IMG/VR virus record: IMGVR_UViG_3300045988_174813
DNA length: 64,000 nt
Origin: a virus
Direction: 5' to 3' (one strand)
Shown here: positions 22,568-40,730 of the stretch, piece after piece
Numbering within the stretch: the first letter of the stretch is position 1
Layout: every line of letters begins with the position of its first letter
The notes under the pieces: generated by a model
What the model was told of the DNA's origin: nothing
The model's input: the letters and a program-made list of their open reading frames with translations, nothing else
The model's database searches: none
Translations under genes and position numbers: made by a program

Positions 22568-22593
22568 CATTTTTCAAAAATTTATTATATAAT
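22565..22593 (+). promoter_or_regulatory. sigma-A type promoter
   Basis: TTGCAT-17-TATAAT. Confidence 0.55.
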
Positions 22594-22618
22594 ATATAAA
22601 GAAAAGGAGGAAAGCTCG

Positions 22619-23152
22619 ATGGAAGATAAAACTACAAAAACTACTCTCACTCTCTATTGCGGTCTTGCGGGCGCAGGTAAATCCACACACGCACGCGACT
22701 ATGCCACAAAAACCAACGCGCGCTATATATCCATTGACGCGTTCTATGAAGCTTGTTTTGGTGACCCAAAAATTCACGCCCACGAATTTGAAGTATGGAT
22801 GATGTTCTACAATGCCATTCGTCTTGCAGGCATAGACCACGTTTCAGTAGTCATTGATACAAATGCACCGACCCGTGCGAATAGAGACGAATTGTATAAC
22901 TGGTTTGCGCAGTATTTTGATACTACTGAACTTATGTGGATTGATGCCAGCCCTGCTTTGTGTATGGCAAATAATGCTTCGCGCGAACGCGTAATTCCTA
23001 CTGATGAATTTTTGGATATGGTAGATGCCTTTGAAGAACCAAGTGCAGAAGATGAAACTAGATGGGACACCATTTACCGTGTAGAAAATAAGCACAATAA
23101 GTTTAGTGGCTTTGAACTTATTTCTAAAAAACAAAAGAAAATTGGATTTTGA
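22619..23152 (+). CDS. P-loop kinase (AAA_33 / polynucleotide-kinase-like)
   Basis: AGGAGG RBS; Walker A GLAGAGKST; VVIDTN..R. Confidence 0.6.
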   Translation: MEDKTTKTTLTLYCGLAGAGKSTHARDYATKTNARYISIDAFYEACFGDPKIHAHEFEVWMMFYNAIRLAGIDHVSVVIDTNAPTRANRDELYNWFAQYFDTTELMWIDASPALCMANNASRERVIPTDEFLDMVDAFEEPSAEDETRWDTIYRVENKHNKFSGFELISKKQKKIGF

Positions 23153-25968: not shown

Positions 25969-26269
25969 TGAATTTGCAGATTTTCTTGGGCGATATATTG
26001 AAAGTGAAAAGAAATTCAATAATTTTGCACAAGCAGTAGAAGAATATTTTACTGATACATATATAATGGCGCCAAAAGATAGTGAATTAGTTCTTGATAT
26101 TTTGCGCACTGTGATGAATGATGATGAAGATTGGATTAGTTATTGGATGTATGAGTTGGATTGCGGGCGCGCGTGGAAGCCATATATGGTAACCAAAGAT
26201 GGGGAAGATATTCCCTTGCGGACGATGGAGGATTTGTGGAATTTGCTAAATGAGGAGGCGCGCGAATGA
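25952..26269 (+). CDS. hypothetical protein
   Basis: 105-aa ORF, overlapping gene junctions. Confidence 0.55.
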   Translation: MKLTYDEFADFLGRYIESEKKFNNFAQAVEEYFTDTYIMAPKDSELVLDILRTVMNDDEDWISYWMYELDCGRAWKPYMVTKDGEDIPLRTMEDLWNLLNEEARE

Positions 26270-26985
26270 AGATTTATTTAGCTGGACCGATTTTTACTTA
26301 TGGAGATTTACTTCGTAATACTGAATGGGCGCAGAAAATTCGAGAAGCCCTTCCAGGAGTGGATTTATATTCGCCTGTTGAGAATACCGATATAAATGGC
26401 ACAGAAGGCAAGAAGAAATTTGCTGGCTCGCGCGAAATAGCACAGGCAGATAATCTTCGTCTTGATGAAACGGATGTTCTTGTGGCATGTATTGACGGTG
26501 ATGTATTGCCTAGCGGGACATGTGCGGAGATTGGAAAATTTCACGAAAAAATTGCGCGTGGAGACCATAAGCATATTATTGGTATTTGCACTGATAATCG
26601 CCAATGCCATTTGACTAGTAGCCCCGCGAAAGATGCTGGTGGAGCAAGCGAGCTTGGGGAACAACAGTATTCTTATCAGAATCTCTATGTGACTGGGCTT
26701 ATCAAGCAGTATGGAGATTTAGTGTATACTATTGACGAAGTAATTATGCTTCTAAAAAAGTATGCTAAAGAATATGGGCAGAAAGTTACAAGTAAGCGGA
26801 AAACTGACAAAGAACTTATTGAAGAATTTGAAAATGATATGACTCGTTGTCATTTTGAACGTTTTGTCGGTAATTATTATCTATATCATGATGAAGGAAA
26901 TGATGATATTTCTCTAATTAGCATCACTCCTTCTGGTACAATTCAACACTTATTGAGAGAAGTAAATTTGGAGGAAATTGAATGA
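26266..26985 (+). CDS. nucleoside 2-deoxyribosyltransferase
   Basis: MKIYLAGPIF.. start and ..DGDVLPSGTCAEIG catalytic-Glu region. Confidence 0.7.
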   Translation: MKIYLAGPIFTYGDLLRNTEWAQKIREALPGVDLYSPVENTDINGTEGKKKFAGSREIAQADNLRLDETDVLVACIDGDVLPSGTCAEIGKFHEKIARGDHKHIIGICTDNRQCHLTSSPAKDAGGASELGEQQYSYQNLYVTGLIKQYGDLVYTIDEVIMLLKKYAKEYGQKVTSKRKTDKELIEEFENDMTRCHFERFVGNYYLYHDEGNDDISLISITPSGTIQHLLREVNLEEIE

Positions 26986-28208
26986 AGTATGGAATAAAGG
27001 ATAAGCCTCCATTTGGGCAATTGGTTCTTTTCTCACTCCAGATGATGCTTAGTTGCTTTACCGCGACAGCACTTATTGGACAGATTTGTAATGTTCCTTT
27101 GTCGGGCGCATTTGTAGGTTCTGGGCTTGCAACTATTGTATATCTTATTGCAACTAAGTTTGAAAGTAGTATGTACATTTCTAATTCAGGCGCCTTTGTA
27201 TCACCTGTATTGATTGCACTCCAACTTGGTGGCGCGACTGCGGTAGCCATTGGTGGTGCAATTGCTTGTATCGTTTATTGTATTTTTGGCTTTATTTTTA
27301 TGAAGATTGATGTAAGTCATATTTATAAAGTATTGCCTAAGGTGCTTATTGGCTCCATTACTGTAGTTATTGGTATTACTCTTATGAGTTTTATTCCATC
27401 ATACATTGGTGATACTGGTAATGTGGGTATGTTTATTGCACTTATCACGGTACTTACTATTGCTTTTGTTTCTCATTATTGCAAGGGCGCGCTCGCATTA
27501 TTTCCATTTTTGATTGGCACGCTTGTGGGATATGTAGTATCTATTCCTTTTGGCCTTGTAGATTTTAGTGTTTTTGAAGGAATCAGTTTATTTACTCTAC
27601 CTGACCTTGGTTTCTTTCATTGGACAAATATTGATGTAAGTACTTTACCTAATATTATTGTTCTTTTTGTGGCATTTACAGTGAGCGCAATTTGCGAATG
27701 CCTCAGCGATCATGCGGTTCTTGGTAATATTATTGGTGTTGATTTGTATCGTAAGCCTGGTCTTGGGCGCATTTTTATTGGCGAAGGATTAGCAAATCTC
27801 GTGGGCGCGTCAAGTGGGCAACTCGCCCAGTGTAGCTACGGAGAGAGCGTGTCAACTATTGGCTTTAGTAAATGTAGTTCAGTCTATTCTACTCTTGGAT
27901 GCGCGCTCTTTATGATTGCACTTGGTTTTATTGAACCTGTGCAAGCATTCGTAGCATCTATTCCATCCTGTGTTATTGGCGGTGGTACTGCAATGGTGCT
28001 TTATGGATTTATTGCTAATAGTGGTATTCGTACCTTACAGTCAGTAGACTTCAATAACCAGAAGAATCTAATTATTTCTTCTGTTGTTATGTCCCTTGGT
28101 ATCAGTGGCGTTATTGTAGGCAATGATACATTCCATTTGAGTGGAACGGCGCTTGCTCTTATTGCAGGTATTATTTTGAATTTTGTATTGAAGGAGAAAA
28201 ATAACTAA
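26982..28208 (+). CDS. uracil/xanthine permease (NCS2 family, UraA-like)
   Basis: Collinear with E. coli UraA: SLQ, SNSGAFVSPVL, YGESVSTIG, GGTAMVLYGFIANSGIRTL, NLIISSVVMSLGISG; multiple long hydrophobic segments. Confidence 0.8.
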   Translation: MKYGIKDKPPFGQLVLFSLQMMLSCFTATALIGQICNVPLSGAFVGSGLATIVYLIATKFESSMYISNSGAFVSPVLIALQLGGATAVAIGGAIACIVYCIFGFIFMKIDVSHIYKVLPKVLIGSITVVIGITLMSFIPSYIGDTGNVGMFIALITVLTIAFVSHYCKGALALFPFLIGTLVGYVVSIPFGLVDFSVFEGISLFTLPDLGFFHWTNIDVSTLPNIIVLFVAFTVSAICECLSDHAVLGNIIGVDLYRKPGLGRIFIGEGLANLVGASSGQLAQCSYGESVSTIGFSKCSSVYSTLGCALFMIALGFIEPVQAFVASIPSCVIGGGTAMVLYGFIANSGIRTLQSVDFNNQKNLIISSVVMSLGISGVIVGNDTFHLSGTALALIAGIILNFVLKEKNN

Positions 28209-34597: not shown

Positions 34598-34673
34598 AGG
34601 CCTGTGGTGTAACGGTAAGCATAGGAGGCTCTAACCCTCTTGATACTCGTTCGAGTCGAAGTCGGGCCTGCCA
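34598..34673 (+). tRNA. suppressor tRNA, anticodon CUA (reads UAG), Gln-like
   Basis: Acceptor AGGCCTG/CGGGCCT, anticodon arm GGAGG-CTCTAAC-CCTCT (CTA at 34631-34633), G73, CCA; one bulge in the T stem. Confidence 0.8.
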
Positions 34674-34803
34674 TACTAAAGGCGCACACAGCAATTCCTA
34701 ATAGGGTAAAAATTTGTTCTGCACAAACGAATTAGTTGGTTCAAATCCAACAAAAAAAACTTGCGTCTTGAGTTTATTTCAAAAGAAAGAAAGGAAAACA
34801 TTT

Positions 34804-35624: not shown

Positions 35625-36398
35625 ATGGACATCACTAATTTTGATACCTATAATGCGCGAATGTCATCCTCTATTGAGGATAAAATGTGGTTTTGGGATA
35701 AAGTCAAACATACTACAGATTCTATTGTAGATTATGGATGCGCCGATGCGTCTCTTCTTTTGCGTATCAATGAAGAGCATCCTTATCAGACTCTTATTGG
35801 CTATGATGCTTCTGATGATATGCTAGCCCGCGCGAAAGAAAAAACTAAAAATACACCTATTTGCTTTGTAGAAAGTATATTTGAGCCGGAAATGAAAGAG
35901 ACTTGTCTTGTTCTTTCTTCTGTAATTCATGAAATCTATTCTTATCAGTTGAAAGAAGATGCAGATTTTGAACTGGGCATGATTTTTGACCTTGGCGCAA
36001 AATATATTGCAATTCGTGATATGGGTATACGAGATATATGCCGTAATATAGAAACACCAATCGATGTTCTCAAAAACATTTATGCACGCGATGATGTTGC
36101 TAAGATTGCTTCTTTTGAAAAACGTCAAGGCCGTATTTCTAATTGGGCAAATTGTATTCACTATCTTTTGAAGGCGCCATATGACGAGAATTGGGCGCGA
36201 GAAGTGGAAGAAAATTATGTACCGTTTACTATGAATGAAGTGCTCGCGCAATATAATGTGGATAGTCCTGTCAAATATGATGTGGTGTTTTTTGAAGCAT
36301 ATACCTTACCCTATGTGCGCGAACGCATTATTCGAGATTATAATATTAGCTTGTATACGCCCACTCACTATAAACTGCTTCTTGAACGTCATTTCTAA
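35625..36398 (+). CDS. class I SAM-dependent methyltransferase
   Basis: IVDYGCADAS (motif I), LIGYDASD, LVLSSVIHE; embedded in the tRNA island. Confidence 0.6.
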   Translation: MDITNFDTYNARMSSSIEDKMWFWDKVKHTTDSIVDYGCADASLLLRINEEHPYQTLIGYDASDDMLARAKEKTKNTPICFVESIFEPEMKETCLVLSSVIHEIYSYQLKEDADFELGMIFDLGAKYIAIRDMGIRDICRNIETPIDVLKNIYARDDVAKIASFEKRQGRISNWANCIHYLLKAPYDENWAREVEENYVPFTMNEVLAQYNVDSPVKYDVVFFEAYTLPYVRERIIRDYNISLYTPTHYKLLLERHF

Positions 36399-36405
36399 TC
36401 TATAT

Positions 36406-36489
36406 GCCACCGTGATGGAAAGTATACATACAAGCCTTAGAAGCTTGCGCCCGCGAGGGATTGCGAGGTCGAACTCGCCGGTGGCACCA
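36406..36489 (+). tRNA. tRNA-Leu (UAG)
   Basis: Acceptor GCCACCG/CGGTGGC, anticodon arm CAAGC-CTTAGAA-GCTTG, long variable arm, A73, CCA; T loop looks 6 nt. Confidence 0.7.
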
Positions 36490-36496
36490 GTAAAAT

Positions 36497-36525
36497 TTGA
36501 ATTTTCTGAAAATTTAGTGTATAAT
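36497..36525 (+). promoter_or_regulatory. sigma-A type promoter
   Basis: TTGAAT-17-TATAAT. Confidence 0.65.
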
Positions 36526-36559: not shown

Positions 36560-36775
36560 ATGGCTTATTTTGATTGTATGGGAACTTGTGGGGTTAGTCC
36601 TTTCAAGTGTAAGAATCACTATTGTAGTGGTAATCCTCATTACACCCCGCCGAAGCGGAAAGTGAAACCCAAGCAGGGTTCTGGCAATCATCCTGTTCGT
36701 TCTATTCGTGCGAAAATTCGTAAGGATGATGGACGCGGATATAATTTCTTTAGAGATATGGCGCGAGACGAATAA
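36560..36775 (+). CDS. small basic Cys-rich protein
   Basis: GAAAGGAAAG RBS; 71 aa, K/R-rich. Confidence 0.5.
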   Translation: MAYFDCMGTCGVSPFKCKNHYCSGNPHYTPPKRKVKPKQGSGNHPVRSIRAKIRKDDGRGYNFFRDMARDE

Positions 36776-36778
36776 GTT

Positions 36779-36855
36779 TAGCGTATAGTGGAAGGCTCTT
36801 ACAGCGATAGATTTATAATTCTATTGTATTATTGGTTCGACTCCAATTGCGCAAT
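36779..36855 (+). tRNA. tRNA-like gene with 7-bp anticodon stem and 8-nt loop (TTTATAAT)
   Basis: Acceptor TAGCGTA/TGCGCAA (1 mismatch), T arm ATTGG-TTCGACT-CCAAT; non-canonical anticodon arm. Confidence 0.35.
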
Positions 36856-37239
36856 TGCGTATAGCTTAGTTGGTAAAGCAAATAAAAATTATTAGAGCCT
36901 TGGATAGTTTACCTTAGATAAGTTTGGATTTTAGTTAGTTTTGAGTAAAGACCCTTACAGCAAACATTCTAATATTTTTGGACTTATAATCCCGTGGTCG
37001 GTGGTTCGAGTCCACCTCAGACAGCCTGCGTGGTATGTCAGGTAGCTCAGTTGGCTAGAGCACGAAAATTATTTTGTGGGTCTTGTTTTATGTTTTGTTG
37101 GATTGGTACTCCTTAGTAAATAAAGGCGCGGGACTGCAATCTTTGAAAAAAGAATGTGATATAATAGATACTGTCGAGCGACCTCGGTAGGCTTGACCCC
37201 AAGTTCGGCTGGATTATCCAGCTCGCGCCTTGTATTTAT
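36855..37239 (+). other. cluster of unpaired tRNA half-molecules plus a structured element
   Basis: 5' half 36855-36880, 3' half ~36978-37024 (loop CTTATAA, T arm GGTGG-TTCGAGT-CCACC), 5' half 37036-37062; helix AAGGCGCG/CGCGCCTT 37124-37230. Confidence 0.4.
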
Positions 37240-38308: not shown

Positions 38309-38403
38309 GTGAATCATTGAATAAGATATAAAGACGCATAACAGCAATACATTATATAAATATTTTTTGAAAATATATTATGGAAATGCGTCTTGGTTTA
38401 TAT

Positions 38404-40648: not shown

Positions 40649-40729
40649 CCTCTAATAGCAAAGTGGTAATGCATACCATCCCAAGTTTACGTAAGAAGGT
40701 AACCATTGGTTCGAGTCCAATTTAGAGGA
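40649..40729 (+). tRNA. tRNA-like gene with an enlarged anticodon region
   Basis: Perfect acceptor CCTCTAA/TTAGAGG, D arm GCA-AAGTGGTAA-TGC, T arm ATTGG-TTCGAGT-CCAAT; TACC..GGTA encloses 20 nt; no CCA. Confidence 0.4.
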
Positions 40730-40730
40730 C

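Follow-up and report, generated by a model that had tools for sequence, protein, structure and literature searches.

A stretch of viral DNA of 64,000 nucleotides (IMG/VR record IMGVR_UViG_3300045988_174813; the whole stretch is called the window) carries, in a tRNA array on its + strand, two tandem RNA units (unit 1 and unit 2; Table 1). These units very probably are Y-RNA-like tRNA mimics of the YrlA type whose partner is a divergent Ro60-like protein, the gene for which also lies in the window. The evidence lies in the RNA fold, in its conservation and covariation, in the linkage of the RNAs to the Ro60-like gene, and in a terminal helix plus motif that occurs as a module of its own. Particles of Ro60 and Y RNAs are conserved from bacteria to humans; their role is partly understood in bacteria and hardly at all in phages.

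Both units were built from the same elements in the same order: basal stem, UUACAGCRA, variable hairpin, T arm, closed acceptor hairpin and D arm. UUACAGC(G/A)A comes after the 5' strand of the basal stem, and a G after its 3' strand. In unit 1 the stem strands are AAGGCUCU opposite AGAGCCUU, with ends refined by folding and inspection. RNAfold gave a minimum free energy (MFE) of -31.9 kcal/mol for unit 1 (z -3.08) and a z of -2.57 for unit 2. The tRNA-like tertiary residues U8, A14, G18-G19 and the T-loop UUCGA are present in both units. The mini hairpin of unit 2, which was read by eye, is missing from the MFE structure of that unit; short hairpins of this kind, with 7-nt loops ending in AA, are found in many family members.

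A preliminary description had read this DNA as tRNA halves placed 3' half before 5' half, and its T arms, acceptor strands and D arms were all recovered at the positions it gave. At the DNA level, TGCGCAA of unit 1 (36848-36854) abuts TTGCGTA-TA-GCTT-AGTTGGTA-AAGC (36855-36879), and in unit 2 TCAGACA (37017-37023) is followed by GCC and then by TGTCAGG-TA-GCTC-AGTTGGCTA-GAGC (37036-37061). Since the acceptor strands of unit 1 have no spacer, only 5 bp (UGCGC/GCGUA) form around an AAUU tetraloop; the pairing of all seven positions proposed earlier would need a loopless 7-bp helix, which is impossible. The pairing of six of the seven positions in unit 2 was confirmed from the sequence, and the linker put at 11 nt measures 12 nt between the acceptor strands, or 9 nt after GCC.

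YrlA RNAs are recognized by a 5' GNCGAAN0-1G motif, by V, T, acceptor-like and D stem-loops and by tRNA-like tertiary pairs, among them a covarying 15:48 pair (Chen et al., 2014; PMC4201824). In a permissive Rfam scan, YrlA (RF02553) was the sole family other than tRNA. The matches span the full model, at 36801-36914 for unit 1 (39.7 bits, E 2.3e-7, model positions 1-114) and at 36979-37087 for unit 2 (33.2 bits, E 1.7e-5), both in a 501-nt search. In the Rfam alignment the T arm, closed acceptor-like hairpin and D arm of both units follow the order of the model, and V, T, closed acceptor-like and D stem-loops stand in that order within an end-to-end stem. The basal stem as aligned by Rfam contained mismatches and was discarded, and the stem obtained by folding and covariation was used in its place. 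By sequence alignment, the unit 1 motif UUACAGCGA is the counterpart of GNCGAAN0-1G, and it is proposed as a candidate recognition site for the Ro-like protein. The related ACAGCRA was present at the equivalent position in every family member found.

ARAGORN labels 36779-36855 'tRNA-???' with a 4-base anticodon, and the preliminary description had likewise assigned an anticodon stem and an 8-nt loop to this interval. The call is a misreading that merges three parts of unit 1: its V hairpin, its T arm and a single strand of its closed hairpin. What was taken for a 'D arm' is one strand of the basal stem, and the V hairpin was taken for an 'anticodon arm'. A tRNA whose anticodon loop has 8 nt was rejected for this interval, which reached just 23.1 bits with the Rfam tRNA model (threshold 29). 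A single intron-split tRNA made of the 5' half at 36855 and the 3' half at 37017 was also rejected, its acceptor strands pairing at 3 of 7 positions. The acceptor 5' strand of unit 1 has a partial copy, UAGCGUA, just 5' of the basal stem (36780-36786, +), and this copy enables the ARAGORN call. In the orthologous locus described below, the copy and the internal strand share one G-to-A change, and pairing of the copy with the altered 3' strand is thereby retained, which points to alternative pairing or gene conversion; the copy is absent from a more distant locus (L119).

The orthologous locus L079 (IMGVR_UViG_3300045988_166972) shares with the window the flanking methyltransferase (85% amino acid identity) and a 71-aa open reading frame (ORF; 98.6%). 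The comparison with orthologous loci that the preliminary description had called for was made here, and both units are retained in L079 with compensatory substitutions. The unit 1 hairpin reads UAUGC-GAAA-GCAUA, a C-G pair having become U-A and a G.U pair A-U around a new tetraloop, and in the acceptor-like hairpin of unit 2 the terminal A-U pair is G-C.

Viral contigs were scanned with the pattern TTACAGC-N20-50-GGTTCGA-N17-40-TAGCT, which gave at least 120 matches in at least 119 loci. Among the matches listed, the closed hairpin was paired at 7 of 7 positions in 49 of 120, for the most part around loops of 4-6 nt, which is far more than chance would give (estimate about 0.1% per site), and a 7/7 terminal stem stood immediately 5' of the motif in 41 of 45 distinct sequences. 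The terminal stems vary by contig (GGAUAC/GUAUCC, GAAACC/GGUUUC, AGACCU/AGGUCU). From a sequence-only MAFFT alignment, RNAalifold predicted all four helices (terminal stem, T arm, closed acceptor, D arm), and 15 of their 20 pairs showed compensatory changes. A covariance model of the tRNA-like form (R1) scored unit 1 at 76.7 bits and unit 2 at 86.8 bits, and at E < 1e-3 it detected at least 125 copies in at least 100 loci, commonly 2-5 copies per locus and some in tandem. In 76 model-aligned copies, 97% of cells were paired (66% in shuffles), double changes were seen in 19 of 20 pairs and the covariation score was 0.82, against 0.21 in shuffles and at most 0.17 in slid controls, the counts for the acceptor and terminal helices being partly by construction. 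UUACAGC belonged to the search pattern and is therefore invariant by construction in alignment A3; support for the motif that is independent of the pattern comes from loci picked by protein and from cultured phages. The 15:48 Levitt pair had no role in the selection of sequences and was G:C in 16, A:U in 14 and U:A in 7 copies, i.e. Watson-Crick in 37 of 43, a level reached in 0 of 10,000 shuffles. Its covariation speaks directly for a three-dimensional fold like that of a tRNA. Judged by these sequences, the units belong to a large, unannotated RNA family of many phages, Felix O1 relatives included, with related RNAs in more than 70 viral contigs. A separate observation was made in one viral contig (L035, 39-667, -), where a ROOL RNA (351.5 bits) adjoins a tRNA array and a Y-like RNA.

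The pattern AAGRCNC-N2-3-ACAGCRA occurs five times in the window, always on the + strand (0.02 expected), and each occurrence is followed by a complementary 7-mer and G. A test that accepted any 7-mer upstream of ACAGCRA with a complement within 150 nt was dropped, as it succeeded at 28% of random positions; the motif count and strand asymmetry were used instead. Besides units 1 and 2, the five comprise two short elements and one with a T arm as its sole tRNA part (Table 1). The place of the short element in the leader of the Ro60-like gene is also occupied in L124, L126, L134, L136, L142-L145 and other loci, and L123 has a short form behind its tRNA(CUA), matching the T-arm element of the window. 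The helix and motif thus occur with or without tRNA parts and are a separate module, which argues against the paired ends being a split anticodon arm. Y RNAs are divided in the same way, into one module that binds Ro and another that acts as effector.

The putative protein partner (Table 1) has 507 residues, in agreement with its homologues. Its Pfam matches were DUF2828 and DUF7788, with no match to the TROVE domain, and phmmer against PDB sequences found nothing relevant. An AlphaFold model calculated with 27 homologues had a predicted local distance difference test score of 89.6 and a predicted template modelling (TM) score of 0.89. The top eight PDB matches of this model in Foldseek were all full-length Ro60 proteins (E 5e-8 to 1e-5, TM 0.47-0.60, 518-566 alignment columns): phiLo Ro60 (9KOP, 9L5Y), Xenopus Ro (1YVR, 2I91), human Ro60 (9NEP, 9NF8) and Deinococcus radiodurans Rsr (2NVO). 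In matches below these, the von Willebrand A domain alone was covered. The protein is therefore predicted, on the strength of this model, to have the Ro60 fold, a HEAT-repeat ring with a C-terminal von Willebrand A domain. The polynucleotide-kinase-like (PNK-like) gene that follows it suggests a possible RNA-repair context.

The RNAs and the protein were linked in both directions. Starting from the RNA, a DUF2828 homologue was encoded in 26 of 60 loci with a closed-hairpin RNA (among the matches listed), all 26 genes on the strand of the RNA and 135-5,900 nt away, and in 3 of 59 control loci lacking such an RNA. Starting from the protein, 80 viral loci were chosen with protein similarity as the sole criterion; with the gene placed on the + strand, 6 kb on each side were examined for a 7-mer, N2-3 and ACAGCRA, followed by the complementary 7-mer and G. 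This element was found 165 times on the strand of the gene and twice on the opposite strand, and at least once in 65 of the 80 loci. Relative to the start codon, many elements are at about -30 to -120, and tandem arrays of three to five also occur. R1 had 32 matches in the same loci, every one of them on the gene strand.

In cultured phages, tblastn with the DUF2828 protein gave matches in 693 records, among them those of Felixounavirus, Listeria A511/P100-like, Mycobacterium, Staphylococcus, Enterococcus, Bacillus, Campylobacter and Vibrio phages; the protein is annotated there as 'hypothetical', 'DUF2828', 'vWFA protein' or 'Ro-like RNA binding protein'. Mycobacteriophage Faith1 has a tRNA-like copy (67.8 bits) 100 nt 3' of the Ro-like gene, with a short form on either side. 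In the Felix O1-like E. coli phage CL1 the Ro-like gene immediately precedes the tRNA array, whose unannotated gaps hold a tRNA-like copy (59.2 bits) and a short form; the CL1 RNA is kept in 248 records, Felix O1 among them, and in the records listed it is unannotated or lies under an overlapping 'hypothetical protein'. Listeria phage A511 carries three short forms in tandem just 5' of gp57. The family RNAs are unannotated in the Felix O1-like, A511 and Faith1 records examined. In Felixounavirus records such as NC_028825.1, KP143762.1 and MN481367.1, the stretch with the Y-like RNAs (CL1 query L120:8959-11520) was called 'tRNA-OTHER' or 'tRNA-Pseudo' by some annotators, which may be the same misreading as the 'tRNA-???' of ARAGORN. 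A distant blastn search of the region of the units against cultured phages matched the neighbouring tRNA-Val only, so there is no close cultured relative.

The likeness to YrlA of Salmonella, Mycobacterium smegmatis and some mycobacteriophages (RF02553) extends to the paired ends with a conserved 5' motif, the order of stem-loops, the tRNA-like D and T loops, the covarying 15:48 pair and a Ro60-type protein encoded on the same strand. It also includes the presence of more than one Y RNA per genome, some without the full tRNA module (YrlB-like). The window differs in that the partner belongs to Pfam DUF2828/DUF7788 and not to TROVE, that the RNA genes stand within a phage tRNA array, and that copies are more numerous (five in the window, up to five tandem elements in relatives). 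In Thermus phage phiLo, a Ro60 and two RNAs, Yrl1 and Yrl2, chosen by a CGAA motif and folding, are described (PMC12135203). The window resembles this phage in having a protein with a predicted Ro60 fold and Y-like RNAs nearby, and phiLo Ro60 (9KOP) was the best structural match; sequence identity between the two proteins is about 15%, and neither a tRNA-like module nor a tRNA-array context is described for phiLo in the sections consulted. Deinococcus radiodurans Yrn1 and metazoan Y RNAs bind the Ro60 ring through a terminal helix and recruit an effector (PNPase in Deinococcus) at the far end, but their conserved helix is a different one and they have the tRNA-like module in part or not at all (PMC4201824).

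A number of points weigh against a YrlA-type partnership. Both units fall under the YrlA threshold of 69 bits, as do eight other family members (35-43 bits), so that the ten members tested span 33-43 bits. GNCGAAN0-1G is not matched exactly: AGCGAU and AGCAAA stand in its place (unit 1 AGCGAUAG, unit 2 AGCAAACA), and the window motif ACAGCRA is separated from that of YrlA by two purine transitions (ACGGCGAAU as compared with ACAGCAAAU). The units lie 14.3 kb downstream of the Ro-like gene, on the same strand, while published YrlA genes are less than 4 kb from Ro60 and on its strand (PMC4201824). The covariation seeds had been picked for pairing in two helices, the acceptor and the terminal one; that selection did not touch the 15:48 pair, the strand asymmetry or the stems of the T and D arms. 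Finally, the Felix O1-like phage Bas63 encodes a Ro60-like protein, gp130, upstream of its tRNA genes, which counters the ppl defence and did so alone once moved into T7 (10.1101/2024.10.10.617714); at least one function may therefore not need the RNAs. From genus-level synteny, gp130 appears to be a DUF2828 family member. A point in favour of the partnership is that three highly transcribed regions 5' of an Rsr-like gene in Listeria phage CKA15 (PMC12282133) fit the three tandem short elements upstream of A511 gp57. In the Bas63 preprint and in the CKA15 paper the existence of such RNAs was no more than a conjecture, and a literature search for 'DUF2828' found no paper linking this family to Y RNAs.

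The order of 3' half, linker and 5' half, together with the complementary acceptor strands, had raised the possibility of true circularly permuted tRNA genes, whose ends would be circularized and whose acceptor loop would be opened to yield a functional tRNA as in Cyanidioschyzon merolae. As summarized in 10.1101/312249, which draws on Soma et al. (2007), the algal genes share with the units a 3' half placed first, a loop-closed acceptor and paired ends, but are circularized and opened to real tRNAs with an anticodon arm. In the units, the paired ends bear a motif of the protein-binding type and an anticodon arm cannot be reconstituted, for joining the ends would leave a helix plus linker of more than 30 nt between the D and T arms, not a 5-bp stem with a 7-nt loop. 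The permuted topology stood, each unit being a circularly permuted tRNA-like fold in the order T arm, acceptor, D arm; the assignment to permuted tRNA genes did not. The 7-nt loop CUUAUAA of unit 2 and the GCC after its acceptor 3' strand, both kept in L079, would suit such genes, and so would the cleavage by RNase P and the gain of CCA shown for M. smegmatis YrlA, whose acceptor stem has 7 bp (PMC4201824). The conserved end helix and ACAGCRA are, however, also found in RNAs without any tRNA parts, and in most family members (among the matches listed) the acceptor loop has 3-6 nt and no CCA-like sequence. The splicing-type endonuclease that would be required is not reported in bacteria (10.1101/312249), and none was among the window ORFs scanned, in a scan that was not exhaustive. 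Permuted tRNA genes are thus extremely improbable here. Nor is the order known only from algae, as had been held: bacterial and phage YrlA RNAs (PMC4201824) had been overlooked, and the solved structure of YrlA has been likened to circularly permuted tRNAs, with the algal genes discussed alongside (Wang et al., 2018; 10.1101/312249).

The more ordinary earlier reading, that of functionless scars left by recombination or deletion among tandem tRNA paralogues, is contradicted by the conservation of both units with compensatory substitutions at L079. More than 70 copies in unrelated viral contigs, in which four helices and the 15:48 pair are held by covariation, and the strand linkage to one protein family also speak against it, and although the units lie in a tRNA array region with degenerate tRNA-like sequences close by and with the partial acceptor copy at 36780-36786, there is very little chance that they are scars. 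A dimeric-tRNA origin has been proposed for YrlA (10.1101/312249) and may be the ancient history of the family; the units themselves are not recent scars. The RNAs might alternatively be functional yet independent of the Ro60-like protein, acting for example as processing punctuation for RNase P or RNase Z in the tRNA-array transcript or as decoys for host nucleases that target tRNAs. Their place inside tRNA arrays, here and in relatives, would agree with this, as would the 14 kb that separate them from the Ro-like gene, acceptor-like stems of the 7-bp length that permits RNase P cleavage of M. smegmatis YrlA (PMC4201824), and the PNK-like and ligase-like genes of the window. It would leave unexplained why the helix and ACAGCRA are shared with short RNAs in the leader of the Ro-like gene and why the association with that gene is strand-specific (165:2). 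A Ro60-independent role is quite unlikely as the whole explanation and is compatible with the Y-RNA-like reading as an extra role of the tRNA-like module.

For Y-RNA-like partners of the Ro60-like protein, the following arrangement is envisaged. The 5' and 3' ends of each transcript pair in a 7-8 bp helix, which has UUACAGCRA next to its 5' strand and a G next to its 3' strand, and by analogy with the particles of Deinococcus, Salmonella and phiLo this helix and motif would be the docking site for the DUF2828 ring protein. Between the helix strands lies an L-shaped tRNA-like module of T arm, closed acceptor-like hairpin and D arm, an order that makes the DNA read as '3' half, then 5' half'. 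The module, again by analogy, may be the effector end, offering a tRNA elbow to host or phage factors that recognize tRNA; candidate effectors are exoribonucleases such as PNPase, and perhaps also RNase P or enzymes of RNA modification or repair. Transcripts of the tRNA array are the probable source of the RNAs, which would then be co-transcribed with tRNAs; a promoter-like site lies upstream of both units (Table 1), and nothing resembling a terminator was found ahead of unit 2. Physical binding, processing, a biological role and expression in this phage are what we infer here. In the phage family the acceptor-like stems are almost always exactly 7 bp. By analogy with M. smegmatis YrlA, one may speculate that the RNAs are opened by host RNase P, finished by the CCA-adding enzyme and held as two-piece tRNA-like molecules on the Ro60-like ring. 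They would then serve counter-defence, for instance by decoying or sensing host nucleases that target tRNAs, or as an RNA cofactor of the Bas63 Ro60-like protein against ppl; this joint proposal is rather unlikely.

The DUF2828 family is widespread in Felix O1-like coliphages, Listeria A511/P100-like phages and mycobacteriophages, and its loci usually bear cognate small RNAs with the signature of a 7-bp stem, ACAGCAA, and the matching stem followed by G, in a short and a tRNA-mimic form. Exact RNA candidates are thereby available in genetically tractable phages, in which the role of Ro60 and Y RNA during infection is directly testable. The family also accounts for a class of 'tRNA-???', 'tRNA-OTHER' and pseudo-tRNA calls and for unannotated gaps in phage tRNA arrays.

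Table 1. Coordinates of the RNA units, their parts and related features in the window (position 1 is the first nucleotide of the window).
Feature	Position	Strand	Basis
Unit 1, complete tRNA-like Y RNA	36792-36903	+	fold, Rfam YrlA, R1, L079 ortholog
Unit 1 basal stem, AAGGCUC(U) 36792-36799 with (A)GAGCCUU 36894-36901, then GG	36792-36799, 36894-36901	+	
Unit 1 5' motif UUACAGCGA	36799-36807	+	Rfam alignment to consensus acggCgaAUG
Unit 1 V hairpin, 8 bp, 8-nt loop	36804-36827	+	ARAGORN call and fold
Unit 1 T arm, AUUGG-UUCGACU-CCAAU	36831-36847	+	Rfam, fold, R1
Unit 1 closed acceptor-like hairpin, UGCGC-AAUU-GCGUA	36848-36861	+	fold
Unit 1 U8-A9 and D arm, GCUU-AGUUGGUA-AAGC	36862-36879	+	Rfam, fold
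Unit 2, complete tRNA-like Y RNA	36948-37085	+	R1, Rfam YrlA, RNAfold, L079 ortholog
Unit 2 basal stem, AAGACCC 36948-36954 with GGGUCUU 37078-37084, then G	36948-36954, 37078-37084	+	
Unit 2 motif UUACAGCAA	36955-36963	+	
Unit 2 mini hairpin GGA-CUUAUAA-UCC, then variable-loop-like CGUGGUC	36980-36999	+	read by eye
Unit 2 T arm, GGUGG-UUCGAGU-CCACC	37000-37016	+	Rfam, R1
Unit 2 closed acceptor-like hairpin, UCAGACA-GCCUGCGUGGUA-UGUCAGG, 12-nt loop, 6/7 paired	37017-37042	+	sequence, R1
Unit 2 U8-A9 and D arm, GCUC-AGUUGGCUA-GAGC	37043-37061	+	Rfam, R1
Short Y-like element without tRNA module, AAGGCCC-UA-ACAGCAA ... GGGUCUU-G	20904-20968	+	leader of Ro60-like gene
Y-like element with basal stem, motif and T arm only (GUUGG-UUCAAAU-CCAAC, 34735-34751)	34679-34770	+	directly after tRNA(CUA)
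Short Y-like element, AAGACGC-AUA-ACAGCAA ... GCGUCUU-G	38331-38395	+	just upstream of tRNA-Gln
Divergent Ro60-like protein gene, 507 aa	20996-22519	+	Pfam DUF2828 and DUF7788; PHROG 850 'RNA-binding protein'
Polynucleotide-kinase-like P-loop protein gene, next after Ro60-like gene	22532-23152	+	PHROG 505, E 2.2e-9
Promoter-like site TTGAAT-17-TATAAT, upstream of the 71-aa ORF (orf71, 36560-36775) and both units	36497-36525	+	consensus match only

The tRNA array extends over 30.2-40.7 kb of the + strand, with 16 ARAGORN tRNA calls interspersed with small ORFs. Directly 5' of unit 1 lies the 71-aa ORF (36560-36775, +), Cys-rich and very basic, which had no Pfam or PHROG match; it is kept in L079 and in L119 (49%), with a tRNA-like Y RNA behind it each time. 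A 257-aa ORF in the array (35625-36398, +), 85% conserved in L079, gave weak sub-threshold matches to S-adenosylmethionine (SAM) methyltransferases and may encode a tRNA- or RNA-modifying enzyme. Between the two ORFs, 36405-36489 (+) forms a type II tRNA-Leu(UAG)-like cloverleaf that was missed by ARAGORN and Rfam. It has an 8-bp acceptor-like stem, an anticodon loop CUUAGAA, a long variable arm, a 6-nt T loop, a D loop without GG and an encoded CCA, and it aligns with a tRNA-Leu(tag) of L123. The tRNA with anticodon CUA (34598-34673, +), called 'Pyl' by ARAGORN, is probably an amber suppressor; it also occurs in L123 (16908-16982) and L119 (629-703), and in the window and L123 a Y-like element stands directly behind it. 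An 82-nt tRNA at 40649-40730 (+) has an abnormal anticodon loop (ARAGORN anticodon 'cc') and an Rfam tRNA score of 44.5 bits, and a similar 82-nt 'tRNA-Gly(ccc)' is present in L123.

The rest of the window is phage-like, with a GH25 and CW_7 endolysin, PhoH, a ligase and a nucleoside deoxyribosyltransferase. The nucleoside 2-deoxyribosyltransferase gene is followed by a gene of the xanthine/uracil permease family (408 aa), the two together occupying 26266-28208 (+); phage-like genomes do not usually carry a permease.

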